From: Gemmatimonadales bacterium
GTDB lineage: Bacteria; Gemmatimonadota; Gemmatimonadetes; Gemmatimonadales; Gemmatimonadaceae
NCBI GenBank assembly: GCA_044449225.1
Contig: JBIOHU010000001.1
Location: 1-46,705 of the forward strand
Direction of reading: 5' to 3'
DNA length: 46,705 nucleotides
The number at the start of each line of letters is the position of its first letter. Positions within the stretch are counted from its first letter, which is position 1. The translations under genes and the position numbers were made by a program. The notes below the pieces were generated by a model. The model saw only the letters and a list, made by a program, of their open reading frames with translations. It had not been told where the DNA came from and ran no database searches. Positions 10,379 to 46,316 of this stretch are shown here, piece after piece.

Positions 10379-10766
10379 TCTGCGCGGCGTCCTTGCCGAG
10401 GAAGCGCTGGACCTCGGCCACGACGGCGCGCGGCTCGCAGGGCTTTGCCAGATAGCCGTCGCACCCCACTTCCATCGCCTTCTCCCGGTCGGACGCGAGG
10501 GCGTGCGCGGTAAGCGCGATGATCGGGATGTCGCGGGTCGCCGGATCGTGCTTGAGCACCTGCGTCGCCTCCCATCCGTCGATGATCGGAATCGAGATGT
10601 CCATCAGGATGAGGTCCGGCTTCTCCATCCGTGCCTTGGCGATCCCCTCCTCCCCGTTCAGGGCCTCGCTCACCTCGTAGCCGAAGTGGCGGAGAATGGT
10701 GGAATAGACGATGCGGTTGTCCTCATTGTCCTCGACGAGCAGGACGGTCTTTCCGTTGTTAGCCAT
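10368..10766 (-). CDS. Single-domain response regulator (CheY-like)
   Basis: 132 aa with VLLVEDNEDN, ILMDISIP, LTAHA and AKP. Its stop overlaps the start of the GGDEF gene by 11 nt. Confidence 0.85.
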
Positions 10767-10917
10767 TCATGGCCTCACACTGCTTGGCGCGTGATCGAAT
10801 CACCACCGGCGGCCGCGGGGAAGTGGCGGAACCGGGGCGTCCGGCAATCGAAAATGCTCCTCGGGACGGGACGCCAGGCGTCGACCGGAGGTACTCTGTG
10901 ACCTGCACCACCATCGA

Positions 10918-11361
10918 ATGACGCCGCACGCAATTTCCAAACCAACACCGACCTCCACCATTCCGAACATGTCCTACGCTGGTCCCTCCCGTGGTCATGC
11001 ATCGAGCCGCTCTGGCGGCGCCACCGCGACCGCCCGGTCCGTCCGGGCCGCCGCCTACACTCCGCACGCGTCCGCTGCGCGTGGCGACACCGATTGGCAG
11101 GAGGTGGCACTCTTCGGGGTCGGCCTGCTCCTGGGGGTGCTGCTCGGTGCCGGCGGGGCATTGCTCGCCGCTCCTCGCACCGGCGCGGAGACCCGGGCGG
11201 CGCTCGGTGCCCGTGCCGCCCGACTTCGTCGCTCCACCACCAGACGCGGGCGCGATGCCTGGGAGGAGCTCAGCGACGAGTTGCGCGGCGCGCGGCACGC
11301 GCTCCGCCGGCGCAAGGTTCGTCGGGCGCGCGAACACGAGCTGGTGTACGACGGGGAGTAG
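10918..11361 (+). CDS. YtxH-like membrane-anchored protein
   Basis: A Gly-zipper TM segment is followed by APRTGAETRAAL, which is characteristic of YtxH. The true start could be internal. Confidence 0.5.
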   Translation: MTPHAISKPTPTSTIPNMSYAGPSRGHASSRSGGATATARSVRAAAYTPHASAARGDTDWQEVALFGVGLLLGVLLGAGGALLAAPRTGAETRAALGARAARLRRSTTRRGRDAWEELSDELRGARHALRRRKVRRAREHELVYDGE

Positions 11362-11406
11362 AGGGGGCGGGTAGGAGGGTGCGGGTCGCTGCGGCGTTCC
11401 ACGACC

Positions 11407-11439
11407 GCGGGCATGCGGCGGCTGCGCCGATATGCCCGC
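11407..11439. terminator. GC-rich stem-loop between convergent genes (candidate bidirectional terminator)
   Basis: GCGGGCAT (11407-11414) pairs with ATGCCCGC (11432-11439). An inner CGGCG/CGCCG stem closes a GCTG loop. There is no U-tract. Confidence 0.4.
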
Positions 11440-11473
11440 ACCGCTTCGAACTCTCCCACGTGCACTCCGCCGA

Positions 11474-12259
11474 CTACAATTTCGCGAGCTCCGCCGCCGC
11501 CTCGGCCTGAAAGTGCTTGTCGTTGTACTCGGTCGGCGTGCCGTTGATCGTCAATTGGTATTGCGCTCGCGCCCGCTGCTTGTCGCCGCGCGCGGCGTAG
11601 ACGCGCGCCAGGTCGAGATGGTGCACGAGGCGGTTTGGCTCGTTCGCGACCGACTCCTCCATGTACTTCTGCGCGTCGTCCCAGTTCGCCGAGTCGAATA
11701 CCTTCCCGCCAAGGAAGGTCTTCGCCATGAAGCGCGTCACCCCGCTCAGCCGCATCACGTTGTAATTCCACATCCCCATCACGTGCTGCGCACCGGCTGC
11801 CTTCGGATCGAGACGCAGGGCCTCCAGCGCTTCCTTCCGCACCTCGCCGGCGTACTTCACCTGGTCGCGCTTGCCGAGGGAGAGCGCCTTTCGTCCCAGC
11901 GCCCGCGCGAGATGGAAGTGACCCTCCGCGTCGCCAGGATTCGCCTGGACCGCGCGGCGCGCGTATTGTTCTGCCAGCGAGTACAGGCGGTCCCGCTCCG
12001 CGGGGATCGGATTGTACTCACCGACGTCCACCGCCTCGCGCGTCGCCTTCCAGAGTGCCTCGTAGTTGGTGGGCTCGACTCCGATCGCCTCCTCATAATG
12101 GTGAAGGGCCGCCGGGGCATTCATCGCCGCGTGTTCCCGGTCGCCGAGGGCGATGTGCTCCGCCGCGCTCTGGGAGCTGGCCACGCGGGGCAGGAGGCCA
12201 AACAGCAGCGCGGCAGTGGCCGCCATCAGGCGGCGCGACGCGGCAACCTTGATCGACAT
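11474..12259 (-). CDS. Secreted all-helical (TPR-like) protein
   Basis: ATG at 12259. The signal peptide is MSIKVAASRRLMAATAALLFGLLPRVASS. The body consists of helical repeats. Confidence 0.55.
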   Translation of the reverse strand: MSIKVAASRRLMAATAALLFGLLPRVASSQSAAEHIALGDREHAAMNAPAALHHYEEAIGVEPTNYEALWKATREAVDVGEYNPIPAERDRLYSLAEQYARRAVQANPGDAEGHFHLARALGRKALSLGKRDQVKYAGEVRKEALEALRLDPKAAGAQHVMGMWNYNVMRLSGVTRFMAKTFLGGKVFDSANWDDAQKYMEESVANEPNRLVHHLDLARVYAARGDKQRARAQYQLTINGTPTEYNDKHFQAEAAAELAKL

Positions 12260-12324
12260 GGGTGACTCCAGGATGCGGGTGAACGAACGGCCGAGCAGTG
12301 TATGGATACCCTGAATTCCGGTCA

Positions 12325-13659
12325 ATGCTCGCTCTGCGTCTGATCGAGCGGAAGCGGGACGGCGGACGCATCGACGCGGGCGAGTGGCGCGCCCTCGCCA
12401 ACGCCTACGCCGCCGGTCACGTCCCCGACTACCAGATGGCCGCCTTCCTCATGGCGTGCTACCTCCGCGGACTCGACCGCGTCGAGACGCGCGACCTCAC
12501 GGAGGCGATGCTCCGCAGCGGCGACGTACTCGATCTGGCCTCCCTCGGCCGGCCGCGCATCGACAAGCATTCGACCGGGGGCGTGGGCGACAAGGTGTCC
12601 ATCGTCCTTGCGCCCCTTATCTCGTCACTTGGCGTTGCCGTGCCGATGATCTCCGGCCGCGGGCTCGGCCACACGGGCGGGACCCTCGATAAGCTGGAGT
12701 CCATACCCGGGTTTCGCACTGATCTCTCGCTCGACGAGGCGAAGCGGCTCATCGAGACCTTCAACTGTGCACTGATCGGGCAGACGTCCGAGATCGCTCC
12801 CGCCGATCGAAAGATGTACGCGCTGCGCGACGCGACGGGCACGGTCGACTCCATTCCCTTCATCGCCGCGAGCATCATGAGCAAGAAGCTCGCGGAAGGA
12901 CTCACCGGACTGGTCCTCGACGTCAAGCGCGGCTCGGGTGCCTTTCTTCCGGAGCTCGATCGCGGCCTCGAGCTGGCGCGCACGATGATCGAGCTCGGCG
13001 CCGATCACGACACGCCGGTCGTCGCCCTGCTCACGGCGATGGACCGTCCCCTCGGCCGAGCCTGCGGCAACGCTCTCGAGGTCGAGGAATCGATCCTCGC
13101 TCTGCGTGGTGAGGGGCCTCCGGACCTGATGTCCGTGACCTACGCGCTGGGCGCCGAGATGCTCGTCCTGGCGAAGGCGGCTCCCGACCACGACGCGGCG
13201 CGGCGCCGGATGGAGCAGGCGATCGGCACCGGCCGCGCCGCCGAGCACTTCCAGCAACTCATCGAGGCGCAGGGGGGCAATCCTGCCGTCGTCGACGATC
13301 CGGCGCTGCTGCCCCAGGCGGCGGAAGTCGAGCTCTACGCCGCACCGCGACGCGGGTTCATCGCCCGCGTCGAGCCACGTGCCATCGGGCGCGGCATCAC
13401 CGCGCTCGGCGGCGGACGCACGACGATGGAGGACAAGCTCGACCTCTCGGTCGGCTTCATGATCTCCGTGCGACCGGGCGACTGGGTGGAGCAGGGTGAG
13501 CCGATGGCATCCATCTTCGCTCAGGACCGTGCCGGCGTGGAAAGTGGTCGCGCGACGCTGCGAGCGGCGATCAGCATCGCCGACGAGGCCGATCCCCCAC
13601 TCCCGTTGGTCTCACACCGCGTCACCGCGGCAGGAGTGGAACAGCTCGTTGACGTCTGA
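12325..13659 (+). CDS. deoA: Thymidine/pyrimidine-nucleoside phosphorylase
   Basis: It has LIERKRDGG.., DKHSTGGVGDK and SGRGLGHTGGTLDKLE. An alternative GTG start lies at 12298. Confidence 0.9.
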   Translation: MLALRLIERKRDGGRIDAGEWRALANAYAAGHVPDYQMAAFLMACYLRGLDRVETRDLTEAMLRSGDVLDLASLGRPRIDKHSTGGVGDKVSIVLAPLISSLGVAVPMISGRGLGHTGGTLDKLESIPGFRTDLSLDEAKRLIETFNCALIGQTSEIAPADRKMYALRDATGTVDSIPFIAASIMSKKLAEGLTGLVLDVKRGSGAFLPELDRGLELARTMIELGADHDTPVVALLTAMDRPLGRACGNALEVEESILALRGEGPPDLMSVTYALGAEMLVLAKAAPDHDAARRRMEQAIGTGRAAEHFQQLIEAQGGNPAVVDDPALLPQAAEVELYAAPRRGFIARVEPRAIGRGITALGGGRTTMEDKLDLSVGFMISVRPGDWVEQGEPMASIFAQDRAGVESGRATLRAAISIADEADPPLPLVSHRVTAAGVEQLVDV

Positions 13660-13738
13660 GCGCGCGCTTTGCATCATTTCGTCGGCGGCGTGAACGCGAT
13701 CGCCACCTGAGGTCACGACCCGATCAGGAGAGAACTCG

Positions 13739-13981
13739 ATGCCGCCGAAAATTGCCCGACTCGCCGGATTCGGCGCCTTCGCCGCTTGCGCGGCCTTCGC
13801 TGCCCTCTTCGTCCTGTTCGTCATCGGGACCTGGCCCTCGCCATCCTCCGGGCTCGACAGCACGGAGCGCTTCCTTTCCTGGTTCGGCGTCGGTGCCGTA
13901 CTATTCGCCTTGCTCGGCGTGCACCTGGTGATCGGCCGGCGCCTGCTCGCCGTGAGTCGTGGCGTGGCGGAGCCGGTCTAG
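13739..13981 (+). CDS. Small two-TM membrane protein, hypothetical
   Basis: 80 aa with two hydrophobic helices. A GGAGAG Shine-Dalgarno-like sequence ends 7 nt upstream of the ATG. Confidence 0.5.
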   Translation: MPPKIARLAGFGAFAACAAFAALFVLFVIGTWPSPSSGLDSTERFLSWFGVGAVLFALLGVHLVIGRRLLAVSRGVAEPV

Positions 13982-13987
13982 CGGCGC

Positions 13988-15709
13988 CTACTGCCGACAG
14001 CCGCCATTCGGGTCGGGAACCGGCTTGTCCACCACCAGCCGCTGCGGTCGATTCGCCACCGCCTCGGCGATGTCGTGCACGAACTGCGCGACCCGGGCGA
14101 GGTGGCCGTAGTCGATGTACTGCGGCTCGTCGGTCACCTGATGGTAGTCGGTATGGTAGCCGAGCGAGAAGTACGTGATGGGGATGCCGTACCGGGCGTA
14201 CATATAGTGGTCGCTGCGGCAGTAGCGGTTGAGCGGGTGGCCGTTTGCGTCGAACGACGCATCGATGTCCATGTGCGGCGTACGGGCGGCGTTCACCGAG
14301 TCGATGAGGTCGCCGAGCTGCGTCGAGAGACGCCGTTGCCCGATGAGCTCCACGTTGTTCGGGCCGCGACCCATGATGTCGGTCGGCTTGCCGCGGCCGA
14401 CCATGTCCATGTTGAGTTGCGCCACGATCGAGTCGCGCGGCACGGTGGGATGGTCGGTGAACCACTGCGATCCCCATAGCCCCTTCTCCTCGCCGGTGTG
14501 CGACACGAACAGCAGGGAACGGCGCGGTCGTTCCGGTGCCGTGGCAAACCGCTGCGCGATCTCCAGCATCGCCACCGTGCCGGAGCCGTCGTCGTCGGCG
14601 CCGTTGTTCACCGAGTCCGGGCGCACCCCGCCGTGCGCGAGGGTCAGGCTGTCGCGCAGCACGCGAATCCGTGCCGCCTCTGCGGCCGTAGGCGTGCGGA
14701 CGGGGTCCTGCACGCCCTGTCGCCGCACGACCATGTTGTTGGCGAGGACGGAGTCGTGGTCGAGGGGACGCGCCGTGAGCCCGATGTGATCGTTGTGCGC
14801 TCCGATCGCGACGTACTGTCCGCGGAGCGCCGGATCGCGGCCGGGGAGGATGCCGATCACGTTGCGCGATGGGAACGCCGCCGGCGTGTCGACGAAGGCG
14901 AGATTGCCGCTCACCGCACGCCCGGTCGCACCCACGGCGAGGCCGTCGAGCGAAGAGACTCCGAGCATCCGGCGCGCGGCGGCCGGCGACACGAGCAGCA
15001 GCGCCGGTCCAACGGGCAGCGCCGGCTCGGCGCGCGGATGAGTCTGGGCTCCCCGGAGGCGTGCGATCTGGCCTGGAGTCGCCGCGTCGAGCGATACGCC
15101 GGCGATGCCGGCTGCGCTCGCGTATGGCGCCAGGGATGTGCTGGCGTAGAAGCGGTAGTCCCGTCGTCCTGTCGTCGTCGTCGGCACGGCGAACACCACG
15201 AGCTTGCCGGTCGCCGCCTCGGGAGCGATCAACGTCCCGCCGAGCTGGCCGCCGTAGACCACTGATGCACCGTCGAGCGAGCGCGTCGACGCGCCGCTCG
15301 GGAAGGCACGGCCGGCCGTGCCGGGCACGATCGGCACGACGTCCGTACCGAGGACGAGCGGGACGCCGTCCACGCGAAGGGTGCGGGAGCTGTCGAGGCG
15401 CGAGACGACGACCGGCACCGTCTGGAAGTAGCTGCCGTTCTCGCCGCCAGGGAGCAACCCCATCCGGCGCATCTCGCCGGCGACGTAGTCGGTGCCCTTG
15501 ACGTTGCCGATGGTGCCGGCCTTCCGGCCGAGCATCGAGTCGTCGGCGAAGATGTACAGGCGGGTCATCGCGTCGGCGGCGGTGATCGCGCCGACGGTCG
15601 GCGACGGTAGGTGCGAGCGGACCTCGCCGATCGGGGTGACGACGGTGGTGCCGGACGTCGCGCAGCCGGCGAGTAGCGCGGCGAGCGGAAGGAATCGGAT
15701 GCGTGGCAT
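13988..15709 (-). CDS. M28-family aminopeptidase lipoprotein
   Basis: It has the lipobox LLAGC. The M28 metal-ligand regions are HNDH, DDDGSG, GEEKGLWGS and a C-terminal H. Confidence 0.8.
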   Translation of the reverse strand: MPRIRFLPLAALLAGCATSGTTVVTPIGEVRSHLPSPTVGAITAADAMTRLYIFADDSMLGRKAGTIGNVKGTDYVAGEMRRMGLLPGGENGSYFQTVPVVVSRLDSSRTLRVDGVPLVLGTDVVPIVPGTAGRAFPSGASTRSLDGASVVYGGQLGGTLIAPEAATGKLVVFAVPTTTTGRRDYRFYASTSLAPYASAAGIAGVSLDAATPGQIARLRGAQTHPRAEPALPVGPALLLVSPAAARRMLGVSSLDGLAVGATGRAVSGNLAFVDTPAAFPSRNVIGILPGRDPALRGQYVAIGAHNDHIGLTARPLDHDSVLANNMVVRRQGVQDPVRTPTAAEAARIRVLRDSLTLAHGGVRPDSVNNGADDDGSGTVAMLEIAQRFATAPERPRRSLLFVSHTGEEKGLWGSQWFTDHPTVPRDSIVAQLNMDMVGRGKPTDIMGRGPNNVELIGQRRLSTQLGDLIDSVNAARTPHMDIDASFDANGHPLNRYCRSDHYMYARYGIPITYFSLGYHTDYHQVTDEPQYIDYGHLARVAQFVHDIAEAVANRPQRLVVDKPVPDPNGGCRQ

Positions 15710-17920: not shown

Positions 17921-19882
<1,962 letters not shown>

Positions 19883-20058
19883 CTAAAATTGCCCACCGAA
19901 TACATACCGAAAGAGGGCCGCGCCCCAAAAAACGAAATCTAATGAATCGCGGTCGCCAGCGCAACCGCGATCAGTGTTCGTAAGTGCTTGTAATTCTTGT
20001 GGTTATGACTCTGGCACCGACGCCGCGTCTCCCCCACCGCAGAGCGCCTCCCCTTCTC

Positions 20059-20370
20059 TCACATCCGCTTCAGCACCCATCGGATCCGCTTCACGGCGAG
20101 CCGTCCCTGCTTCGCGTTCAGCGAGAGCAACAGCTCCGGCTCCATCATTGACAACTCGGTCATCCACGCGTTCGTCGTCACCGCCACGAACAGTGTTCCG
20201 TCGGCGGCGATCGACATCGGTTGCGTCACCTGCGCGATCTGCGCGCCGACGAGACCAGTCCACTCCGGGATGATTCCCGCCTGCTCCACGCGGGCCGCGA
20301 TGCCGGTATCCTTCAGCACGCCGGCCAGCACGTCGGCGATCGACGAGGGCCGCTTCTTCGCCGGACTCAC
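20059..20370 (-). CDS. DUF721-family protein (the recF-gyrB spacer gene)
   Basis: 103 aa in the typical position between recF and gyrB. The GTG start overlaps the recF TGA (GTGA). Confidence 0.7.
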   Translation of the reverse strand: MSPAKKRPSSIADVLAGVLKDTGIAARVEQAGIIPEWTGLVGAQIAQVTQPMSIAADGTLFVAVTTNAWMTELSMMEPELLLSLNAKQGRLAVKRIRWVLKRM

Positions 20371-21527
20371 GAGACGGCCGCCAGCGAATCAGCCGGCTCC
20401 AGCACGCCGGCGGTGATGCGCCACCGCGCGAGCTGCGTGAGTGCTGGCGGAATGTCCCCCTCGCGCGGCACGGTGAGCAGGGTCTGTCCCATGCCGTGGT
20501 CCGCCAGCAGCTCGAGGATGCGCGCCGACCGACGCGCGTCGAGCTCGGCGAACGGGTCGTCGAGCAGCAGCAGCGGGGCCGCGCCGAGGCGCTCGCGGAG
20601 CGTCTCTCCCTCGAGCAGCCGCAGCGCGATTGCCGCAGTGCGTTGCTGTCCGGCCGAACCGAACTCGCGAAGCTCGCGCCCGTCCAGCGTCAGGGCCAGA
20701 TCGTCGCGGTGCGGACCGGCGTGGGTCAGTCCGCGGCGGAGGTCGAGCGCACGCCTGGACTCCAGCGCTCGACGCAATGCGTCGCGCACGCCGACGAGGT
20801 CGTGCGATGCTGGCGTCAGCGGAGTCGCGTAGCGCAGTCCGACGGCAGCCTGCTCGCCGATCGCCGCGCACACGTCGGAAAAGCGGGGCATGGCAGTCGC
20901 CGTCCAGTTCACGCGCTCGCGCCAAAGCACCGCGCCGTGTTCGGCCAGGGGCTCCTCCCACACGGCGATCCGTTCCTCGGCCCTGCTTCCGCCGCCGTGC
21001 AGCACGCCGCGTAGCGCGGCGTTGCGCTGCGCGAGCGCATGCCGATAGCGCTGCAGCGCCGCGAGGTACGGGCGCGACGACAGGGCGAGCAAGATGTCCA
21101 GATAGCGCCGTCGCGCGTTGGGCGAGCCAGCGACCAGCTCGAGGTCCGCGGGAGAGAAGAGCACGCAGGGCAGCGCGCCGAGCGCATCGCTCAGCCGCTG
21201 CGGCTCGGCGCCGTCGAGCTTCACCCGCTTGCGCCGGCCGGCGCGCTCGAAGCCGGCGGAGAGCTCATGATGTGCCCCGCCATCGACGCGAGCGGAGACG
21301 TGGAACCCATGCGCGCCGAACCGAACGACGTCGACGTCGCGCGCCCCACGCACGCTCCGCAGCAGGTGCAGGTAGTACACGGCCTCGAGCAGGTTGGACT
21401 TTCCCTGCCCGTTCTCTCCGATGATCGCCACACCGGCGGCGGGAAACTCGGCATCGAGCCGCTCCAGGTTGCGGAAGTCGCGCAGCGCGAGCGACCGCAA
21501 CACCACGCGCGAGCCGTCGCGTGTCAC
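20367..21527 (-). CDS. recF: DNA replication/repair protein RecF
   Basis: It has LALRDFRNLE, the Walker A GENGQGKSNLLEA, the signature GSAGQQRT and the Walker B LLLLDD. I trimmed the 534-aa ORF to the GTG at 21527. An alternative start lies about 8 codons downstream. Confidence 0.85.
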   Translation of the reverse strand: MTRDGSRVVLRSLALRDFRNLERLDAEFPAAGVAIIGENGQGKSNLLEAVYYLHLLRSVRGARDVDVVRFGAHGFHVSARVDGGAHHELSAGFERAGRRKRVKLDGAEPQRLSDALGALPCVLFSPADLELVAGSPNARRRYLDILLALSSRPYLAALQRYRHALAQRNAALRGVLHGGGSRAEERIAVWEEPLAEHGAVLWRERVNWTATAMPRFSDVCAAIGEQAAVGLRYATPLTPASHDLVGVRDALRRALESRRALDLRRGLTHAGPHRDDLALTLDGRELREFGSAGQQRTAAIALRLLEGETLRERLGAAPLLLLDDPFAELDARRSARILELLADHGMGQTLLTVPREGDIPPALTQLARWRITAGVLEPADSLAAVS

Positions 21528-22303
21528 CTGCCGGCGAACGACGGCGCGCGCTTCTCGAGGAAGGCGCGCATGCCTTCGGCCTTGTCGGCGCTCGCCGAGA
21601 GCAGGCCGAAGTACGACGCTTCGAGCGCGATGGCGTCGTCGAGCCCCATGTCGAGGCCGCGGTCCACGGCCTCGATGCACTGCGCGACGGCGAGAGGCCC
21701 ATTCGTGAGGATCGTCGCGAGCATCGCGCGGGCGGTCGCCAGTAGCTCGGTGGCGGGCACCACGCGATTCGCCAACCCGATCCGGAACGCCTCCGACGCG
21801 TCGATCGTCTCGCCGGTGAGCAGCATCTGCAGCGCGAGCCCCTTGCCGACGAGGCGCGGAAGGCGCTGGGACCCGCCGTAGCCCGGCACGATGCCGAGTT
21901 TCACTTCGGGCTGGCCGAACTTCGCCGCCTCCGAGGCGATGCGGATGTGACAGGCCATCGCCAGCTCGCATCCGCCACCGAGAGCGAAGCCGTTCACCGC
22001 GGCGATGGTGGGCTTGGGCGACGTCTCGAAGCGCCGAAAAGTGCGCTGGCCGCGCTCGGCGCGTGCCTTGCCCTCGACGGCGCTCTGGTTCGCCAGCTCG
22101 GCGATGTCCGCGCCGGCGACGAAGGCGCGGCCGGCGCCCGTGAGAAGCACGCCGCCGACGTCATCGCGGCCCACCGCCTCGTCGATCGCAGCACCCAGCT
22201 CCGCCATCAAGGCGTCGTTGAGCGCATTCAGCTTGTCGGGGCGGTTGACCGTGATCGTGGCGATCCGGTCGGCGACGTCGAAGGTGAGAAGCTGGTAGGC
22301 CAT
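21524..22303 (-). CDS. Enoyl-CoA hydratase/isomerase (crotonase)
   Basis: 259 aa with the crotonase-fold motifs (FVAGADI.., GGGCELAMACH, E..GL.PG.GG.QRL). Confidence 0.9.
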   Translation of the reverse strand: MAYQLLTFDVADRIATITVNRPDKLNALNDALMAELGAAIDEAVGRDDVGGVLLTGAGRAFVAGADIAELANQSAVEGKARAERGQRTFRRFETSPKPTIAAVNGFALGGGCELAMACHIRIASEAAKFGQPEVKLGIVPGYGGSQRLPRLVGKGLALQMLLTGETIDASEAFRIGLANRVVPATELLATARAMLATILTNGPLAVAQCIEAVDRGLDMGLDDAIALEASYFGLLSASADKAEGMRAFLEKRAPSFAGR

Positions 22304-22385
22304 GGTCGAGGCGCCGGGGGTGAGGTCGCCGCGCGGAAGGGGAATCTACATGCGCGGACCGTCTTTTGCCTCCAGCCGGCGTGTC

Positions 22386-23396
22386 ATGGCCGAATGGATC
22401 ATTCGAGAGGGGCCGAAGAGCAATTTCCGCTACCGCCGCGCCGACGGACGACTCGTCCGGGACGTGCGCACGCTCGAGCGCATCAAGTCCCTCGCCGTCC
22501 CGCCGGGCTGGAGCGACGTGTACGTCGCGGCCAGCGCGCGGGCCGAAGTGCAGGCGTGGGGGCTGGACGTCAAAGGGCGGAAGCAGTACCGGTACCACCC
22601 CCGGGCGGTGGAGCGCGGGCAGCGCCGCAAGTACTATCGCGTGCGGGAGCTGGCGAAGGCTCTGCCCCGGATCCGAGAGAGGGTGCGGCGTGATGCGTCG
22701 TCGCGCACTCCCTCCCGCCGCGCCGTCGCCGCCGCCGTGGTCCGGTTGATCAGCGAGAGCTTCTTCCGCGTCGGCGGCGAACGGTACGCCGCGGAGAACA
22801 ACACGTTCGGCATCGCCACGCTGCGGAAGCGGCACGTCACGATCGAGAGCGGTCGTGCGACCTTCGAGTACGTCGGGAAGCGCGGCGTGGCGCAGCGTCA
22901 GGTCGTCCCCAATCGCGAGCTGGCTCGTGTGGTGAAGCGCCAGCTCGAGAGTCCCGGGGCGCGGCTTTTTCGCTACCGCGACGCCGGACGCTGGTGCGAC
23001 CTCACGGCGCGCGACGTCAACGCCTACCTTCACGACACCCTCGGCGTCGCCTTCAGCGCGAAGGACTTTCGCACCTGGGGCGGAACCCTCCGCGCGGCGA
23101 CCGTTCTGGCCGAGCTTGGGCCCGCGCGCACCGAGACCGAGGCGAAGCGCAACGTCGCGACGGCGATGCGGCTCGTCGCCTCCGAACTGGGCAACACGCC
23201 GGCGATCTGCCGGAAGTCATACGTCCATCCGATCGTCGTGGCCCGCTACGTCGACGAGGGGGACACGATTCGCCTCGCGGCGCGGCACCGGCCGCGCGCC
23301 GACGCGTACGCTCACTCGCCCGAGGAGCGCGCGCTGATCCGCTTTCTCGACGATCACTTTCCGGAGCGGCGGAGCAGACGGCGCCAGGCGGGGTAG
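22386..23396 (+). CDS. Bacterial type IB DNA topoisomerase
   Basis: It has PPGW.DV.., GRKQYRYH, TLRKRHV, FEYVGKRG and DFRTWGGT, with the active-site context RKSYVHP. Confidence 0.8.
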   Translation: MAEWIIREGPKSNFRYRRADGRLVRDVRTLERIKSLAVPPGWSDVYVAASARAEVQAWGLDVKGRKQYRYHPRAVERGQRRKYYRVRELAKALPRIRERVRRDASSRTPSRRAVAAAVVRLISESFFRVGGERYAAENNTFGIATLRKRHVTIESGRATFEYVGKRGVAQRQVVPNRELARVVKRQLESPGARLFRYRDAGRWCDLTARDVNAYLHDTLGVAFSAKDFRTWGGTLRAATVLAELGPARTETEAKRNVATAMRLVASELGNTPAICRKSYVHPIVVARYVDEGDTIRLAARHRPRADAYAHSPEERALIRFLDDHFPERRSRRRQAG

Positions 23397-23404
23397 GAGA
23401 CGGT

Positions 23405-24100
23405 ATGTCGTCCACGAATTCATCATCGTCGCGCGTCGCGCTGACCGACGCGCTCGAGGCGCACTCCGCGCGTCTGGCGAGCTGCCGTCGCTGCGCGCTC
23501 GGACCCGGCGTGCTGCCGAGCGTGTCGCGGTCGCGCGCGCCGCGCGCGATGCTGGTCGGTCAGGCGCCGGGCCAGGTGGAGAGCGGTGGCGGCCGACCGT
23601 TCGCCGGCCGCGCGGGACGGACGCTCTTCGCATGGCTCGCGTCGGCTGGCCTGGATGAAGAGGCGGCGCGCGACCAGATCTACATCGCCGCCGTCACGCG
23701 CTGCTATCCGGGACCGCATCCGTCCGGCCGAGGCGACCGGGTGCCATCGCCCCGCGAGCGTGCTTCGTGCGCCGACTGGCTCGACGACGAGCTGCGACTG
23801 ATCCGGCCGGCGCTGCTGATCCCCGTCGGCCGGTTGGCCATCGACCATTTTCTCGGCCCGGTGCCGCTGGCGGAGGTCGTCGGACGCGAGCACGAGGTGA
23901 CCCATGCCGGTGGACGATCGATCGCGATTCCATTGCCACACCCGAGCGGAGCGAGCAGCTGGATTCACGCCGAGGGCAACCGGGCGCTGCTCGTCCTGGC
24001 GCTGGAGCTGTTGAGCGCGCGGCTGGCGACGCGCGTGGAGATTCCGGGCGCGCGACCTCGAGCGGTACGGCGGTCCTCCGTGAGTGTGGCGGAGAGATAG
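23405..24100 (+). CDS. Uracil-DNA glycosylase superfamily protein (Fe-S, family 4/5-like)
   Basis: Motif A is LVGQAPG and motif B is PHPSGAS. Four Cys residues (CRRC...C...C) are spaced as in the 4Fe-4S UDG families. Confidence 0.7.
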   Translation: MSSTNSSSSRVALTDALEAHSARLASCRRCALGPGVLPSVSRSRAPRAMLVGQAPGQVESGGGRPFAGRAGRTLFAWLASAGLDEEAARDQIYIAAVTRCYPGPHPSGRGDRVPSPRERASCADWLDDELRLIRPALLIPVGRLAIDHFLGPVPLAEVVGREHEVTHAGGRSIAIPLPHPSGASSWIHAEGNRALLVLALELLSARLATRVEIPGARPRAVRRSSVSVAER

Positions 24101-24418
24101 ATGCGCGTGCTGCTGCTGGTCTTCTCGCTGCACGGGGTCCCGTCGGTCGCGTCGGCAGATCGCTGGTTCTCGGCCGACAAGCTGGAGCACTTCCTGAGCG
24201 CCGCGTTCGTCCAGAGTCTGGCGTACGGCTCGCTCCGCGGCGTCGGCGCGAGTCATGGCGCGGCGATGGCCGGTGCCTCCGTCACCACGGCGGTGGTCGG
24301 AGTGGGAAAGGAGATCCACGACGCGCGGACGGGGGGCGACCCGAGCCTGCGCGACCTCGCGTGGGATGCAGCGGGCGCGGGGACGATGAGCGTGCTGCTG
24401 TCGCACTCGGCGCGATAA
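24101..24418 (+). CDS. Small secreted protein, DUF2279/YfiM-like (tentative)
   Basis: It has a signal peptide followed by a W.S.DK.EHF motif. The ATG directly follows the TAG of the UDG gene. Confidence 0.4.
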   Translation: MRVLLLVFSLHGVPSVASADRWFSADKLEHFLSAAFVQSLAYGSLRGVGASHGAAMAGASVTTAVVGVGKEIHDARTGGDPSLRDLAWDAAGAGTMSVLLSHSAR

Positions 24419-24522
24419 TATCGATCATACTGGCGGCGACGGCGTCAGGGAAAGTCCGATCCGGCCGCGGCGGCGGCAATCGTTATATTGGCAAGGTTCT
24501 TCCTCTTATCCGCGAGCGCGGC

Positions 24523-25005
24523 ATGATCTCGGCTCGAAGCAAGTTTCTCATCGGCGGCGCCCTCGTGCTGGGTACCGCCGGGTACCTGATGGCGACGTCC
24601 ATTCAGGAGACCGGCACCTACTACCTGACGCCGACAGAGCTCGCGACGCGCCTCGAGGCCGATCCCGGCTTCCGCAATACCGGCGTGAAGATCGGCGCCC
24701 GGGTCGTGCCGGGCTCCATTCAGCGGATACCCGGCGGGCGTGAGTACATCTTCCGCGTCACCGACGGTGCCCGGGTGGTGCCTGTGGTCTACCGCGGCAT
24801 CGCCCCCGACACCTTCACGGACGGGGTCGACGTCGTGGTGGAGGGACGAATGGGTCCTGACGGCACCTTCCACGCGACGACGCTGCTCGCCAAGTGCGCG
24901 TCGCGCTACGAGAACGCACCGGGCTCGCCGGCCGGAGGTCAGCCCGGCGGCGACAAGTACAAGCAGACGCCGGGCTACAAGGCGGCGACGGGGGCGCAGG
25001 CGTGA
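24523..25005 (+). CDS. ccmE: Cytochrome c maturation haem chaperone CcmE, Cys-type (CxxxY) variant
   Basis: It has an N-terminal TM anchor and an OB-fold body (VKIGARVVPGSI..F.VTD..V.V.Y.G..PD.F..G..VVVEG). The haem-binding position reads LAKCASRYE (C125, TGC at 24895-24897), where LAKHxxxY is usual. Confidence 0.8.
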   Translation: MISARSKFLIGGALVLGTAGYLMATSIQETGTYYLTPTELATRLEADPGFRNTGVKIGARVVPGSIQRIPGGREYIFRVTDGARVVPVVYRGIAPDTFTDGVDVVVEGRMGPDGTFHATTLLAKCASRYENAPGSPAGGQPGGDKYKQTPGYKAATGAQA

Positions 25006-27029
25006 TCCTCGTCGGTGAGCTGTCGCTGTGGGTGGCGCTCCTCATGGCGGTGTGGACGATGGTGACCTCGTATGCCGGTGGCGCGCTGGGCCGCGAGGAC
25101 CTGATCGCGAGCGGTCGTCGAGGGATGTACGCGACCGGCGCGATGATCGTTCTCGCCTCGCTCGGACTCTGGACCGCGCTGCTGACCCACGACTTCTCCC
25201 TCAAGTACGTCGCGTCGAACACGAGCGCGAACATGCCGAAAGTCTACGTGTTCGCCGCGTTCTGGGGCGGGCAGGCCGGCTCGATGCTGTTCTGGGCGCT
25301 GATCCTGTCGCTCTACAGCACGGTCGCCATCTGGTCGCTGCGCGAGAAGGGACGCGACCTGGCGCCCTGGGCCTGCGGTACCCTGGCGGCGATCCTCCTG
25401 TTTTTCATCGCGACGATCTGCTTCAAGGCGAACCCCTACGACCGGCTGGCGTTCGTTCCAGCCGACGGCCGCGGAATGAACCCGCAGCTGCAGAATCCGG
25501 GGATGGCGATTCATCCGCCGAACCTGTACCTCGGCTACGTGGCGACGTCGATCCCGTTCGCCTTCGCGATCGCCGCGCTCGTGACCCGCAAGCTCGACGC
25601 GGAGTGGCTCGGCATCGTGCGGCGATGGTCGCTCGTGTCCTGGTTCTTCCTCACGGTCGGCATCACTCTCGGCATGTGGTGGGCGTATGTCGAGCTCGGA
25701 TGGAGTGGCTACTGGGCGTGGGACCCGGTCGAGAACGCGAGCTTCCTGCCCTGGCTCACCGGAACGGCGTTCCTCCATTCCATCATGATCCAGGAGAAGC
25801 GCGGGATGCTGCGGAAGTGGAACGTCGTCCTCGTCGTGATGACCTTCCTCCTTGCGATCTTCGGCACCTTCATCACGCGGAGCGGCGTGATCGAGAGCGT
25901 GCACTCGTTCGCGCAGTCGCCCGTCGGCAGCTGGTTCGCCACCTTCTTCTTCATCGCGACCGGCGCCACGATCTACTTCGTCGCCACCCGACTGAAGGAT
26001 CTCGAGGCGACGGCGGAGCTGGAAAGCATGGTGAGCCGCGAGGCAGCGTTTCTCTACAACAACCTCGTGCTCGTCGGGATCGCCTTCTCCGTGCTCTGGG
26101 GCACCCTGTTCCCGATCCTGAGCGAATGGGTGCGAGGCTCGAAGATCACTGTCGGTCCACCCTTCTTCAACACGGTGAACATCCCGCTCGGTCTCCTCCT
26201 GCTCGGCCTCACCGGTGTCGGGCCGCTCATCGCCTGGCGAAAGGCATCGACGTCGAACCTGCGTCGGCAGTTCGTCTTCCCGGTGGCCTTCGGGCTCGCG
26301 TGGGGACTCTTGCTCGCCGTGCTCGGCATGCGGAGCTTCCACGCCCTGATGGCCTTCACCCTCGCCGCCTTCGTTGCCGGCACGATCGGCCAGGAGTTCT
26401 ACAAGGGCATCCGGGCGCGGCACACGATGCACGACGAGTCGATTCCGGTCGCGGCGGTGCGCCTCGTAGCGCGCAACCGGCGCCGGTACGGCGGCTACAT
26501 CGTGCACGCCGGCATCGTCATCCTCTTCTGCGGCTTCGCCGGTTTGGCATTCAAGAAGGACCACGACGTACAGATGAAGGCGGGGGAGGCGAAGGAGCTC
26601 GTCGATCCCCTCGGGCATCACTGGACCTTCATCAGCCAGGGCATCTCGACGTCGGAGACGCTGAACCGGTTCGTCACGGGAGTCGGCCTCGAGGTGTGGC
26701 GCGACGGCGTACGGCAGGGGATCATGACGAGCGAGAAACGGCAGTACTTCGACAGCAACAAGCAGCCCCAATTCGAGCCGAGCACGGAGGTGGGCATCCG
26801 GACGTCGGCGAAAATGGATCTCTACATCGTGCTCGCCGGGGTGCGTGACGAAACGGCGGAGCTGCGCATCAGCTTCAATCCGCTGGTCGTCTGGGTATGG
26901 ATCGGCGGCATGGTGATGGCCGTGGGCGGGCTGATCGTGATGTGGCCGCAGGCGGAGCGCCGACGCTCCGGCGGCTACGTAGCGACGCTGGAGCCGGCGC
27001 CGCGGGCCGAGCTGGTCACGGTCTCGTGA
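25002..27029 (+). CDS. ccmF: Cytochrome c haem lyase subunit CcmF
   Basis: It is polytopic and has the WWD motif WSGYWAWDPVEN. The GTG at 25002 overlaps the ccmE TGA (GTGA). Confidence 0.9.
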   Translation: MILVGELSLWVALLMAVWTMVTSYAGGALGREDLIASGRRGMYATGAMIVLASLGLWTALLTHDFSLKYVASNTSANMPKVYVFAAFWGGQAGSMLFWALILSLYSTVAIWSLREKGRDLAPWACGTLAAILLFFIATICFKANPYDRLAFVPADGRGMNPQLQNPGMAIHPPNLYLGYVATSIPFAFAIAALVTRKLDAEWLGIVRRWSLVSWFFLTVGITLGMWWAYVELGWSGYWAWDPVENASFLPWLTGTAFLHSIMIQEKRGMLRKWNVVLVVMTFLLAIFGTFITRSGVIESVHSFAQSPVGSWFATFFFIATGATIYFVATRLKDLEATAELESMVSREAAFLYNNLVLVGIAFSVLWGTLFPILSEWVRGSKITVGPPFFNTVNIPLGLLLLGLTGVGPLIAWRKASTSNLRRQFVFPVAFGLAWGLLLAVLGMRSFHALMAFTLAAFVAGTIGQEFYKGIRARHTMHDESIPVAAVRLVARNRRRYGGYIVHAGIVILFCGFAGLAFKKDHDVQMKAGEAKELVDPLGHHWTFISQGISTSETLNRFVTGVGLEVWRDGVRQGIMTSEKRQYFDSNKQPQFEPSTEVGIRTSAKMDLYIVLAGVRDETAELRISFNPLVVWVWIGGMVMAVGGLIVMWPQAERRRSGGYVATLEPAPRAELVTVS

Positions 27030-27643
27030 TGCGCCGACGGGATTTTCTGACCCGCCTCGCGCTGGGTGGCGTCGCGGTGCTCGGGTCGCGGGAGCTGTTC
27101 GCGCAGCAGGCCGCGCCCGGCGCCGGGCCGGCGCAGGGGACGACGTCGAACCTGTTCGACATGGATCAGATGGCGGCGAGGAGGGTGGTGAAGCCGCCGA
27201 AGCGCGATGCGCACGCGTCGATGACGTCGGACGATCGCGACGCGCTCGAGCACCAGCTCCGTTGTCAGTGCGGCTGCACCCTCGACGTGTACACCTGCCG
27301 CACGACCGATTTCTCCTGCCAGGTCTCGCCGGCGATGCACGCCGACGTGATGTCGCTGGTGGAGGGGGGCTACTCCGCGCACGAGATCATCGATGCGTTC
27401 GTCGGCACGTACGGAGAACGGGTCCTGATGGCGCCCCGAAAGGAAGGATTCAACTGGGCCGGTTACATCGTGCCCTTCGCGGCCCTCGGCACCGGCGCCG
27501 CTGCGCTCGTCGTCGTGCTGCGCGGGATGCAACAGCGCTCAGTGAGGGTCGCGGCGGCGCGCGGGCCGGTGGCGGAGCCGGATTCCGGCGCGACGACCGA
27601 CGAGCTGGCCCGGCTCGACGCGGCCATCCGCCGCGACGACTGA
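27029..27643 (+). CDS. CcmH/CycL/NrfF-family protein, atypical (twin-arginine signal, five-Cys motif)
   Basis: It starts MRRRDFLTRLALGGVAVLGS. It has LRCQCGCTLDVYTCRTTDFSC, then a CcmH-like ..G.S..EIIDAFVGTYGERVLMAP and a C-terminal TM segment. The ATG shares 1 nt with the ccmF TGA. Confidence 0.6.
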   Translation: MRRRDFLTRLALGGVAVLGSRELFAQQAAPGAGPAQGTTSNLFDMDQMAARRVVKPPKRDAHASMTSDDRDALEHQLRCQCGCTLDVYTCRTTDFSCQVSPAMHADVMSLVEGGYSAHEIIDAFVGTYGERVLMAPRKEGFNWAGYIVPFAALGTGAAALVVVLRGMQQRSVRVAAARGPVAEPDSGATTDELARLDAAIRRDD

Positions 27644-28152
27644 TGTCGGCGCTCATCATCGGAACGCTGCTCGCCGTCGGCGCGCTCGCGTATGTGCTCT
27701 ATCCCCTGCTCACCGGCCCGATCCCGATCGCGCGACGACGAGTGCCGCGTCGGCGGGAGGGCGCGAAGGTCGTGGAGCACGAGGCCATCGTCGCGCTCCG
27801 TGAGATCGAGTTCGATCGGGTGACGGGGAAGCTGTCGGACGCCGACTACGCCGAGCTCAAGACGCGCTACACGCAGCGGGCGCTCGACGCGATGCGCGCG
27901 GGAGATCCCGCGACGTCAGGCGACGCCATCGAGGCGGCAGTGCTCGCGTATCGCGCGCGCATGAAGAACTGCGCCGACTGCGGTCCGCGCCCGGAGCCGG
28001 ACGCGCTCTACTGCTCCAGTTGCGGGCGCTACTTGGCGGGCGCCTGCGCGTCCTGCGGAGCCACGGTGAGCCAGCCAGGCGCGGCGTTCTGCGGGAGTTG
28101 CGGTCAGGAACTCAAGGGCGGTCAACTGACCGAACTACGGTCAACATACTGA
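27643..28152 (+). CDS. CcmI N-terminal-module-like protein fused to a double zinc ribbon
   Basis: It has a TM segment (MSALIIGTLLAVGALAYVLYPLL), a basic stretch, and a CcmI-like REIEFDRVTGKLSDADYAELK. It then has four CxxC pairs (CADCG, CSSCG, CASCG, CGSCG). The last 11 codons lie inside the repeat array. Confidence 0.55.
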   Translation: MSALIIGTLLAVGALAYVLYPLLTGPIPIARRRVPRRREGAKVVEHEAIVALREIEFDRVTGKLSDADYAELKTRYTQRALDAMRAGDPATSGDAIEAAVLAYRARMKNCADCGPRPEPDALYCSSCGRYLAGACASCGATVSQPGAAFCGSCGQELKGGQLTELRSTY

Positions 28153-28409
28153 ACGTCGGTCAACTTACCGAACTAGGGTCGACCTACCGAAGGGCGGTCG
28201 ACGTACGGAAGGAAGGACGGTCGACGTACTGAACTACTGTCGACTCACTGACCCGCAGGCAATTGAACGGCCGAGCGCAGGCGCCTGAGTCGACAGCGGT
28301 GCGGTAAGTCGGCCGCAGTTCAATAGGTGGACCGCGGTTCGGTCAGTCGACCGCCGTTCCGTAAGTCGACCGCCGTTCCGTAAGTCGACCGCCGTTCGGC
28401 ATTCGACCG
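28119..28409. repeat. Mirrored array of 7 direct plus 7 inverted ~19-bp units (consensus CGGTCRACnTACnGAAC)
   Basis: I parsed the units by hand. The left arm is 28119-28255, the centre is 28256-28277 and the right arm is 28278-28409. Two adjacent right-arm units (28354-28372 and 28373-28391) are identical. Confidence 0.9.
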
Positions 28410-28420
28410 ACGTCAGCTGT

Positions 28421-28972
28421 TCACCGTACCCGCGCCTCGCGCGCCACCCGCCAGCTCGATCCGCCTCCCACGAGCTGATAGATCCTCTCGAATCGCAGCG
28501 CCGGGGGCCGCTGGCCGCTGGCGGGGCCGAATTGCTCCGCGGAGAAGTACAGCTCGATCGTGTCGGTCGAGACGCGGAAGACGTCGGAAGCGCGCACGAT
28601 GTAGCCGGGCACGGTGGTGTGGCAGCGTGGCGTGTCCAGCGCGGTCTCGCGGATCGGCTCGCAGACACCCGCAACCACGCCCCGTGCCTGCAGCGCGCGC
28701 GCGAGCGCCGCCGGCACGCTGTCGCCTCCCGCGTAGCCCGCCGTGCGCGGGAGGCGGAGCGGATGGAGGAGCAGGGTGAGTCCCGGCCCGAGGTCGAAGG
28801 CGGCGCGCGCGGCGGCGTCGTAGGCGGCGGCTTCGGACGCCACCGGCAGCGCGGCGAGCTGCAGCTTGCGGCCGCGCGCGACGTCGGAGTCGTCCGCTCC
28901 AGATGGGCCGCAGGCGGCGGCCAGGAGGAAAAACGCGACGACGAGTGAGAGGACCCGCTGCGTGCGCATCAT
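28421..28972 (-). CDS. Lipoprotein, hypothetical
   Basis: It has a signal peptide plus lipobox (LLAAAC). It is the last gene of the minus-strand ABC operon. Confidence 0.55.
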   Translation of the reverse strand: MMRTQRVLSLVVAFFLLAAACGPSGADDSDVARGRKLQLAALPVASEAAAYDAAARAAFDLGPGLTLLLHPLRLPRTAGYAGGDSVPAALARALQARGVVAGVCEPIRETALDTPRCHTTVPGYIVRASDVFRVSTDTIELYFSAEQFGPASGQRPPALRFERIYQLVGGGSSWRVAREARVR

Positions 28973-28980
28973 CCCCGAAT

Positions 28981-30687
28981 CTAGCGCTCCACCGCCTCAA
29001 GCCGGCGCTCGGCCATGGAGATCGGCAGAATCGTCGCCGCCATGCAGAGCACGGCCGCGGCGCCGAATCCGACCACCATCTCCGTCATCGAGCTCGGCGT
29101 GCCATAGAACCGCGCCGACAGATAGCCGTATACCGGCCTCGCCTCGAGCACGACGACGGCGGCGATCAATCCGATCGCTGCAATCATGAACATCAGCCCT
29201 CCGAACGACGTCGGGATCTGGGCCGCGTTTTCCGTCTCGAACTGTGGGAAGAGCGTTCCGAAGCCGAGCGCCATGCCGCAGAGCGCGAGCGTCATCAGGC
29301 TGATCGTCATCACCGAGACGGCGAACATGAAGTCGCTCACCTGCAGCAGTGCGTCGGTGACCCCGACGATGCCGAGGGCGAGCACGAGCAGCGGCGTCGT
29401 GCCGACCCAGAACTTCGCCCACAGTAGATCGCGCACGGGCATGGGGCTCGACCGCAACAGCCAGAGCGTGCGTCCCTCGAGGCTGACGCTCGGAAAGATG
29501 AATCGCGCCGCGACCGAGGCAAGGACGAAGCCCGCCAGCACGAGGTTGAGGAACGGAATCACGTTGACGAGGAAAAAGGTGATCCCCTCGCCGCGCAGCG
29601 GCAGGTACTTGATGTTGAACACATAGACGACGACGAGCACGGCGAGCAGGATGAGCTGCGACCACTGTGTCGTGTCGCGGAAGAACAGCCGCAGCTCCTT
29701 GAGCACGAGCTCGCGCTTCAGGATCCCCAGCGGCTTGAACAGCAGATGCCCGACGTCATGCATGACCTTGCCGCGCACGAACCGCTGCCCGCTTTCCTGC
29801 GCCTTGCTGAAGCCGATCGAGTACAGGCTACGATGGAGGATCGCACCGAGGACGAACGCCGCCGCCGCGGTGCTCCAGAGCAGGTAAACGGCCATCCAGT
29901 CCGGCCGGTAGCTCAGCCAACCGAGGATGGCGCGCTGCACCCACTCGCTGGGAAGGAAGGGCGACGTCGGCGTGCGGAGCACGGTCACGAACTCCACCAG
30001 CGAACGGAATCCCTCCGGGCGCGCCAGCCGCTCCGGCCTCACAATGCGGAAAAGCAGGACGATCCCGCCCGCCGCGAGCACGGCGATCACGCTCAGGATG
30101 TCGCGGGTCCGGCGGGCGGGAAAGATATTGACGAGCACCAGCGTGATGGCGCTCCCGACCACCGCCGGCACGACGAGAAATGGCACGAACACCGCGGCGA
30201 CGACAAGCGGAAAGAGCGGGCCGCCATGATATGCCGTCCCGAACGCGGCGAACATCGGGATCGCCAGCAGGAGCACCATCCAGCTCGAGTTCACTCCGGT
30301 CTCGAGAAGCTTCGCGCCGTACAGCTTGAGCCAGTCCGCCGGCGAGGCGACAAGAAGGTCGAGGTCGCGCGCGAGGAAGAAGCTCGACAGCGCGGTGATG
30401 ATGTTCGACAGCAGAAGGATCGAGAAGAAGCCGATCAGGATGATGCCGAGCAGCTTTCCGGCGAGAAAGGGCCCGAGGTCGGGCACGCCGCGAAAGTACA
30501 CGAGCAGCTTGTACAGCACGGCGTAAATGAAGGCCCAGAACAGCAGTGCCATCCCGCCAAGGAGGACGAAGCGCATCGTGCGGCCCCGCTCGTTGGCCAT
30601 CGTCCGCGCCCGTGCCGTGAGCCACTTCGGGCGGAGCAGAAGGGCGAGCGAGGGATCGGGGCGCACCCCCGATCCTGCATCAGGCAT
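28981..30687 (-). CDS. Large polytopic permease ('putative ABC exporter' type)
   Basis: About 568 aa with more than 10 hydrophobic helices. The ATG at 30687 overlaps the stop of the ABC ATPase gene by 8 nt (ATGCCTGA). Confidence 0.65.
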   Translation of the reverse strand: MPDAGSGVRPDPSLALLLRPKWLTARARTMANERGRTMRFVLLGGMALLFWAFIYAVLYKLLVYFRGVPDLGPFLAGKLLGIILIGFFSILLLSNIITALSSFFLARDLDLLVASPADWLKLYGAKLLETGVNSSWMVLLLAIPMFAAFGTAYHGGPLFPLVVAAVFVPFLVVPAVVGSAITLVLVNIFPARRTRDILSVIAVLAAGGIVLLFRIVRPERLARPEGFRSLVEFVTVLRTPTSPFLPSEWVQRAILGWLSYRPDWMAVYLLWSTAAAAFVLGAILHRSLYSIGFSKAQESGQRFVRGKVMHDVGHLLFKPLGILKRELVLKELRLFFRDTTQWSQLILLAVLVVVYVFNIKYLPLRGEGITFFLVNVIPFLNLVLAGFVLASVAARFIFPSVSLEGRTLWLLRSSPMPVRDLLWAKFWVGTTPLLVLALGIVGVTDALLQVSDFMFAVSVMTISLMTLALCGMALGFGTLFPQFETENAAQIPTSFGGLMFMIAAIGLIAAVVVLEARPVYGYLSARFYGTPSSMTEMVVGFGAAAVLCMAATILPISMAERRLEAVER

Positions 30688-46027: not shown

Positions 46028-46046
46028 CTGCCGTGCGGGAATATTG

Positions 46047-46129: not shown

Positions 46130-46174
46130 TGCGCCGTGGTCGCACGCGGTGCGGCAGGATCGGGGCGGTTCGTC

Positions 46175-46247: not shown

Positions 46248-46316
46248 CTGGGACGCAGGATGCAGGATGTCGGTAACAGGTCGGTGCGGGATGTCGGCAG
46301 CATGCAGGTATGGAAC

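Follow-up and report, generated by a model that had tools for sequence, protein, structure and literature searches.

A two-armed array of 19-bp repeats at a convergent gene junction of a Gemmatimonadales bacterium: a probable copy of a lineage-restricted, foldback-like repeat family

The DNA considered here is a stretch of 46,705 nucleotides from a Gemmatimonadales bacterium (NCBI GenBank assembly GCA_044449225.1, contig JBIOHU010000001.1, positions 1 to 46,705 of the forward strand), which in its full length is referred to as the window. Between two converging genes, encoding a zinc-ribbon membrane protein and a putative lipoprotein, lies a block of fourteen 19-bp repeat units arranged in two arms that point at each other. 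We interpret this block as a probable copy of a non-coding interspersed repeat family restricted to a lineage of soil Gemmatimonadaceae, similar in its organization to foldback elements and to miniature inverted-repeat transposable elements (MITEs). The locus comprises the following features.

27643-28152, plus strand: gene of a zinc-ribbon (DZR) membrane protein, downstream of ccmH; its open reading frame (ORF) ends in unit 2 of the array
28119-28255, plus strand: left arm, seven head-to-tail, inward-pointing units of 19 nt each, with unit 5 extended to 23 nt
28237-28296, no strand: innermost palindrome, CTGTCGACTCA ... TGAGTCGACAG, flanking the centre
28256-28277, no strand: centre or pivot, 22 nt, unlike the unit
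28278-28410, minus strand: right arm, seven inward-pointing units, the outermost with a 1-nt deletion
28411-28429, minus strand: probable degenerate eighth unit, matching at about 10/17 positions and without homology to relatives; it holds the stop codon of the opposing gene
28421-28972, minus strand: gene of a putative lipoprotein without Pfam family, directed towards the array; the protein has a shorter C-terminus than its homologues

The units follow the consensus CGGTCGACNTACNGAAC, seven on the plus and seven on the minus strand, and fill a 291-bp block (28119-28410). The greater length of unit 5 in the left arm is due to a 4-nt AGGA duplication, whereas the right-arm units R2 and R3 (28354-28391) are identical to each other. 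Both innermost units open with CTGTCGACTCA and thereby form a perfect 11-nt inverted repeat (28237-28247 and 28286-28296). Complementarity between the arms amounts to 73-78% and is found in several registers 19 nt apart. Altogether the element measures about 290-310 bp and consists of the units and the 22-nt centre only, with no transposase gene inside. The pivot continues into the 10-nt string AGCGCAGGCG at 28274-28283, which overlaps the innermost right-arm unit and recurs in the closest relative, in a spacer that lacks the array; this gives a weak hint that the pivot might derive from the old spacer. Tandem Repeats Finder reports a period of 19 in both arms (scores 86-129) and a period of 57 (score 152). 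The window contains 16 matches to the consensus at up to 3 mismatches (about 2.0 expected), and 12 of these lie inside the block; 0/100 shuffled sequences reach a count of 16.

An assembly artefact or a chance repeat could be suspected, given that short-read contigs do break in such arrays (L112, L113 and L118). However, the independent JGI contig L118 (sample 3300035177) is 99.73% identical to window positions 27257-28367 and carries the same left arm, centre and most of the right arm, so the array is not an artefact of assembly; together with the shuffles this refutes such an explanation, which we consider practically excluded. The layout given in the preliminary description thus stands: fourteen units of about 19 bp in two opposed arms, confirmed by reading of the sequence, by Tandem Repeats Finder, by the shuffles and by the independent contig, and, after re-checking, the 22-bp centre, the identical adjacent pair in the right arm, the shared innermost CTGTCGACTCA, the end of the zinc-ribbon ORF within the first two units and the 11 nt that separate the array from the opposing stop codon. 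A CRISPR array was rejected, since the units abut without spacers and occur in two opposed orientations. The idea of a restriction site within the unit (core GTCRAC, a subset of GTYRAC) was likewise discarded, as GTCGAC shows no marked depletion elsewhere in the window (38 observed vs 49 expected outside the array).

Both converging ORFs run into the element and stop there. In an alignment with fourteen homologues (158-165 aa, 67-82% identical), the zinc-ribbon protein of the window alone lacks the terminal ...CGxxLAA* that all the homologues share; it reads ...CGQELKGGQLTELRSTY, the conserved ...LAA end being replaced by ...LKGGQLTELRSTY. Since every aligned homologue retains LAA and only the window differs, units 1-2 supply the tail and the stop codon of this protein. 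On the opposite side, the stop codon of the lipoprotein gene (28421-28423) lies 11 nt past unit R1, inside the probable eighth unit, and the protein ends in REARVR* in the window, where the two closest relatives have REARVHEPSS* and REARVHEPAP*.

Alignment of the orthologous junction in relatives, as proposed in the preliminary description, finds the block absent there and points to LAA* as the ancestral C-terminus of the zinc-ribbon protein. No unit of the family occurs at this junction in any of the relatives examined (L062, L063, L064-66 and L067-69). The array-free spacers measure 69 bp in L063, whose neighbouring protein is 83% identical, 29 bp in L064-66 and 156 bp in L067-69. Judged by these alignments, the window array was evidently gained after the split from relatives at about 83% protein identity, and the element evidently overwrote a short ancestral spacer together with the last codons of both converging genes. 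Window positions 17921-27643 are syntenic with the gyrB-dciA-recF-topoisomerase IB-UDG-ccmE/F/H region of L064, L067 and L115, by which measure this part of the window is ordinary core chromosome. Among 14 window ORFs scanned against Pfam there are no mobile-element genes. As a separate observation, L062, an 81%-identical relative, carries an unrelated element of about 260 bp at its ccm/lipoprotein junction (1912-2171), which is bounded by terminal inverted repeats of 39 nt (87% complementary) and contains sub-repeats of the GGATGA type; it seems that small elements have landed at this junction more than once.

Further copies of the unit were found when a strict two-unit pattern was scanned against one genome per species for 185,579 species. 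The scan returned 61 loci, most of which are single matches spread over many taxa and resemble chance (about 35 estimated), while one metagenome-assembled genome (MAG), Gemmatimonadaceae SMAG_U5186 (hereafter U5186), accounts for 13 matches, distributed over 11 loci and 10 contigs. An additional array at L028 529-623, outside the pattern seeds, brings the total to at least 12 arrays on 10 contigs. The U5186 unit reads CGGTCAACTGATNGAAC and preserves the letters CGGTCRAC, A11 and GAAC of the window unit; the middle of the unit is genome-specific (NTAC vs TGAT variants). All U5186 arrays lie between genes and have 1-6 units in each arm; they occupy convergent, co-directional and divergent (L018) junctions, and the array of L010 lies in the gap from a stop codon to the following start codon. 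In several upstream genes of U5186 the unit's own TGA is the stop codon. This supply of stop codons explains how arrays can abut or invade gene 3' ends, as they do in the window. U5186 is related to the window organism, L028 being syntenic with window positions 10471-15601 at 74-78% nucleotide identity. When a two-unit profile was run over 161 kb (window and relatives), arrays appeared only at the places already identified. Three independent short-read contigs end inside arrays of the family (L112 2146-2178, the end of L113, and L118 1042-1111); the repeat therefore fragments assemblies, and copy numbers taken from MAGs are lower bounds.

A second orthologous junction, between a TPR gene and a YtxH gene, offers the reciprocal comparison. 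Here U5186 carries an array, as do L112/L113 (91% protein identity to U5186), L117 (86%) and L114 (85%), whereas the window and L115/L116 (83%) have none. The numbers of arm units differ among the filled sites (about 1+4 in U5186, 6+1 in L117, 3+0 in L114). The counterpart in the window (11324-11486) has no unit but contains a GC hairpin at 11380-11440, GCGGGCAT...ATGCCCGC, and L115/L116 carry a GC-rich hairpin, GGGCGGCGC...GCGCCGCCC, followed by a T-rich tail. Presence and absence at orthologous junctions thus evidently run in both directions, with one junction filled in the window and the other in U5186, as far as the alignments tell. Because the array-free genomes carry a GC hairpin at the array's spot, the element probably stands in for a terminator hairpin; this proposal draws on the TPR/YtxH junction.

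The family shows a common organization. In an alternative phase the unit can be written GAAC-NN-CGGTCRAC-NNANN, and across copies the outermost conserved letters are GAACnGCGGTCRAC ... GTYGACCGCnGTTC. Forward units precede reverse units, such that all units point inward, in 9/9 automatically detected two-orientation arrays and in 12/12 by eye; under random order the chance of nine out of nine arrays sharing one polarity is about 0.002. The notion that each gene brings its own downstream array was rejected, since the arrays keep one polarity whether the genes around them are in tandem, divergent or convergent order. Fixed polarity of this kind, which a stable hairpin would not need, suggests that copies are made of the two-armed element as a whole. 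The arms meet at a palindromic core, CGGTCGACCG, or are separated by a handful of bases (L048) or by unrelated sequence of 20-170 bp (window, L037, L040, L056, L059); palindromic cores read GGTCGACC in L023, L028 and L033 and CGGTCAGCTGACCG in L117. Arm compositions range from 7+7 in the window and 5+5 with a centre of about 100 bp in L040 to an abutting 4+3 in L023 (7 units automatically, up to 5+4 by eye), and one-armed arrays exist as well (L018, L114).

The arrays also change within their sites. In the window, neighbouring units are most alike and the edge units most decayed, and of the 1111 nt compared with L118 only 3 positions differ, 3/3 of them inside the array. Identical neighbours, divergent edges and variable arms clearly point to rapid in-place turnover by local tandem duplication and deletion, and the pattern matches that of a tandem array under slippage or unequal exchange. 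At their variable positions, mirror-paired units match no better than unpaired ones, and several registers pair equally. The claim of the preliminary description that the unit, rather than a perfect long hairpin, is the conserved element is therefore upheld, and selection for a precise long hairpin finds no support on the same grounds.

Folding was computed for both strands, a check already suggested in the preliminary description, and each strand gives a long stable hairpin: -171.9 kcal/mol (z = -8.8) for the plus and -188.2 kcal/mol (z = -11.3) for the minus strand of the window array, compared with -115.4 kcal/mol (z = -9.6) for the array of L023. Single units hardly fold (window consensus -1.1 kcal/mol, z = 0.18; U5186 unit -2.0 kcal/mol). 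The primary role of the arrays could accordingly be sought at the RNA level, in a long bidirectional terminator, an mRNA 3'-end stabilizer, or a structured or antisense RNA made from converging transcripts. The very stable hairpins on both strands agree with such a role, as do the position of the window array between converging genes and the GC hairpins that occupy the array's place in array-free TPR/YtxH junctions. However, the array hairpin lacks a U-tract or T run, no terminator-like site lies in 27600-29000, and at the gathering threshold Rfam detects only four tRNAs in the window and none of its families at the array. Moreover, arrays occupy a divergent junction (L018) and a stop-to-start gap (L010), some arrays lie in promoter-type junctions, one-armed arrays exist, the arms show no compensatory variation, and hairpin stability would need no fixed unit polarity. 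We regard a primary function in RNA as very unlikely. The terminator or RNA structure put forward in the preliminary description is thus retained in part: the long hairpin is present on both strands, and a role of this kind is plausible only as a consequence, while the missing U-tract and the arrays in divergent and co-directional junctions do not fit a terminator.

Intergenic, hairpin-forming repeats of bacteria include repetitive extragenic palindromes (REPs), the bacterial interspersed mosaic elements (BIMEs), in which REPs alternate in orientation with linker motifs between them, and REPINs, described as two inverted REPs around a spacer (PMC3337134). In a reading of this type the unit would be a REP-like sequence mobilized as single-stranded hairpin DNA by a single-copy REP-associated tyrosine transposase (RAYT) of the IS200/IS605 type. 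The family shares with REPs, BIMEs and REPINs its extragenic position, dispersal, narrow lineage, clustered units, hairpins formed from inverted blocks, the lack of any visible target-site duplication and the proposed side-effects as terminator or stabilizer. The REP unit, on the other hand, is an imperfect palindrome of 20-40 nt, is arranged in alternating orientation and is linked to a RAYT. It bears a GTAG or CGTC end tag, the two tags defining two REP superfamilies (PMC3733652). The present family departs from it on palindrome, tag and orientation, and assignment to REP/BIME fails because the unit is not palindromic, in line with its weak folding. The tags were sought in the consensus of 12 window units and in a matrix of 90 loose matches (up to 3 mismatches) from U5186 loci, and neither GTAG nor CGTC occurs at a fixed position in either. 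There is one orientation change per array, with units head-to-tail within the arms, instead of the alternating orientation of BIMEs, and no RAYT was found among the 14 window ORFs scanned or near the U5186 arrays. Membership in this class is hence quite unlikely, although mobilization in a RAYT-like manner is possible. The preliminary description had considered its find novel unless the unit proved to be a scattered REP/BIME-type family; the family is indeed scattered, but its architecture is not that of REP/BIME.

Alternatively, the 19-bp unit might be the site of a putative lineage-specific host protein (nucleoid-associated, of roadblock or terminator type, or partition-type), and the array would then act as a bidirectional barrier or nucleoprotein complex. 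What is conserved lies in the unit (CGGTCRAC, A11, GAAC) and not in arm complementarity, with no co-variation between mirror positions; the polarity is fixed, and the genome's own unit variants (NTAC vs TGAT) could reflect co-evolution with a binding protein. Such a function is nevertheless hard to reconcile with arrays that are gained and lost at orthologous junctions, that vary freely in unit number and that overwrite gene ends; in addition, the 19-bp period is out of helical phase and no candidate binder is linked to the arrays. We therefore judge a host binding array to be unlikely. For a centromere or iteron role in particular, dispersal over at least 10 U5186 contigs is contradictory. 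Plasmid iterons and parC centromeres resemble the window array in having short direct repeats, with units of comparable size, in two blocks, yet they form one conserved locus beside rep or par genes, whereas the family here is chromosomal, dispersed and not conserved in position. The parC-type site envisaged in the preliminary description is thus abandoned, given the many unrelated junctions that carry the unit in U5186, the lack of conservation of the site in relatives and the distance to the ParA-like gene, which is described by the following line.

3853-4698: gene of a ParA-like ATPase (AAA_31/CbiA); the neighbouring ORF at 3068-4171 matches no Pfam family, ParB included

A link of the array to this gene was dismissed because of the distance of about 23 kb, the lack of a ParB-like gene beside it and the dispersal of the family. 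In the region 3068-4698 the ParA-like ATPase is preceded by a TPR protein and followed by an ORF without Pfam match.

The reading with the best support, and to which we assign a probability of about 0.6, is that the window block is a copy of a lineage-restricted, non-coding, foldback- or MITE-like interspersed repeat family of soil Gemmatimonadaceae. Its architecture is of the foldback type, with inverted arms of tandem sub-repeats, variable and unequal arms, and an optional loop. Several features of MITEs are present as well, namely terminal inverted repeats (in the form of the 73-78% complementary arms), small size and the lack of a transposase inside. Dispersal is seen in U5186, with at least 12 arrays on 10 contigs, and the window shows one copy in 46.7 kb. 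Bacterial MITEs such as Correia, RPE and Nezha (PMC3184786) are similarly small, non-coding and intergenic with inverted termini, are dispersed, are present or absent at orthologous sites, and can become joined to adjacent ORFs, whose ends they then provide. They consist, however, of a fixed terminal inverted repeat and a core, whereas the element here has variable-length arms of 19-bp tandem units with the outer units most degenerate, and no target-site duplication, parent insertion sequence or transposase was found for it. Pneumococcal BOX elements (PMC3184786) are comparable as modular intergenic repeats with variable tandem internal units and predicted RNA structure, but are built from boxA, boxB and boxC modules of about 45-60 nt in one orientation rather than from two opposed arrays of a single 19-nt unit.

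By analogy, the architecture seems to come closest to eukaryotic foldback elements and to transposon ends with arrayed transposase-binding sites. The Foldback (FB) elements of Drosophila possess long inverted arms of short tandem sub-repeats, with unequal and variable arms, an optional central loop and degenerate edge units; they are eukaryotic, kilobase-sized and flanked by target-site duplications. The likeness of the present family to FB elements is architectural only and implies no sequence or evolutionary link. The ends of Tn7 (TnsB sites), Mu and Tn5090/Tn402 (19-bp repeats) contain direct copies of binding sites of about 19-22 bp, inverted between the two ends and pointing inward, and these ends flank kilobases of genes; the number of their sites is fixed and their terminal bases are defined. 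In the family described here there is nothing between the arms and the number of sites is free.

Several results weigh against this interpretation as a mobile element. The outermost units are the most degenerate, which is odd for the ends of a functional transposon and agrees with passive turnover of a satellite-like kind. No fixed element length exists across copies, and no consistent direct repeat that could represent a target-site duplication occurs at the ends of about 12 copies, while the empty sites (up to 83% protein identity) are too diverged for boundaries to be placed at the level of single bases. The U5186 sequence around the arrays, about 75 kb, contains no transposase, RAYT, autonomous copy or recurrent gene next to them, and there is no transposase among the 14 of about 40 window genes scanned against Pfam. 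The window holds only one copy. Beyond U5186, the 42 pattern matches in JGI metagenome contigs add no copies, all those inspected being coding and most of them encoding the FHA-domain motif GSTNGT.VNG. A pattern scan of viral contigs gave 0 matches, blastn of the block against plasmids and phages gave none, and neither did a search of 5.8 billion predicted proteins with a profile of the array translation, a search of low power. Spread by recombination in place of transposition is possible. The MITE-like element replacing a native 3' end, one of the options in the preliminary description, is therefore borne out as regards its absence in relatives, the overwritten LAA* and the dispersed family, and not as regards target-site duplication, fixed length or transposase.

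If the block is indeed a foldback- or MITE-like copy, its behaviour could be pictured as follows. The orientation of the arms would flip through template switching at the palindromic core, and spread to new junctions might occur through a trans-acting enzyme that recognizes the conserved GAACNGCGGTCRAC block, or through ectopic recombination. In transcripts that enter from either gene, the arms would pair with each other as an imperfect hairpin about 130 bp long. The element would in this manner probably take over the role of a bidirectional 3'-end structure, as a by-product that makes the insertion tolerable and not as the reason for its existence. We further speculate, with considerable doubt, that the family could be a bacterial counterpart of foldback transposons, whose whole body consists of two inward arrays of a 19-bp protein-recognition unit and which is moved by a putative lineage-specific enzyme, preferentially replaces hairpin terminators and donates stop codons. 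Should this be true, the unit would define a new DNA-protein recognition system in Gemmatimonadaceae.

The family belongs among the small interspersed intergenic repeats and was previously undescribed. We found no description of it in Rfam, in plasmid and phage collections, or in viral and JGI contigs, nor in literature searches on Gemmatimonadetes REPs, bacterial foldback MITEs and short tandemly repeated repetitive (STRR)-type repeats. That it should be, in general terms, a selfish or neutral intergenic repeat is no surprise, but its structure is distinctive. Interspersed repeats have been little charted beyond Proteobacteria and Firmicutes, and opposed tandem arrays of a non-palindromic unit with fixed polarity are unusual in bacteria and offer a starting point in the search for the enzyme or protein by which the unit is recognized. 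The element also illustrates how a repeat can rewrite two gene 3' ends at once, and the occurrence of arrays at sites of terminator-type hairpins in array-free relatives bears on the way transcripts end. In practical terms, the arrays affect the quality of Gemmatimonadaceae MAGs, in which copy numbers are underestimated.

Some additional repeats and sequence features were noted along the way. Two adjacent 19-nt units, GGGTCAACACATCGAAGGT, are common to another Gemmatimonadetes MAG (L009 1402-1435) and a metagenome contig (L077 12838-12871); they fit the pattern loosely (nhmmer E = 0.2) and may represent a distant cousin of the family or chance. A metagenome contig of 47% GC (L099 884-1744) contains a satellite-like repeat of about 850 bp with a period of about 39 bp by eye, which includes GGTCGACC and is unrelated to the family. 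U5186 itself harbours a second repeat family of about 80-100 bp, made of tandem 8-nt CGGTGAA(A/T) sub-repeats, at L023 2775-2870 and, as the reverse complement, at L010 53-136, with about 80% identity. In the window, the PvuII-type palindrome CAGCTG is about four-fold under-represented (6 observed vs 24.7 expected under a maximal-order Markov model), a scarcity that may reflect restriction-site avoidance. The four tRNA genes form a cluster at 45955-46389, near the right end of the window.

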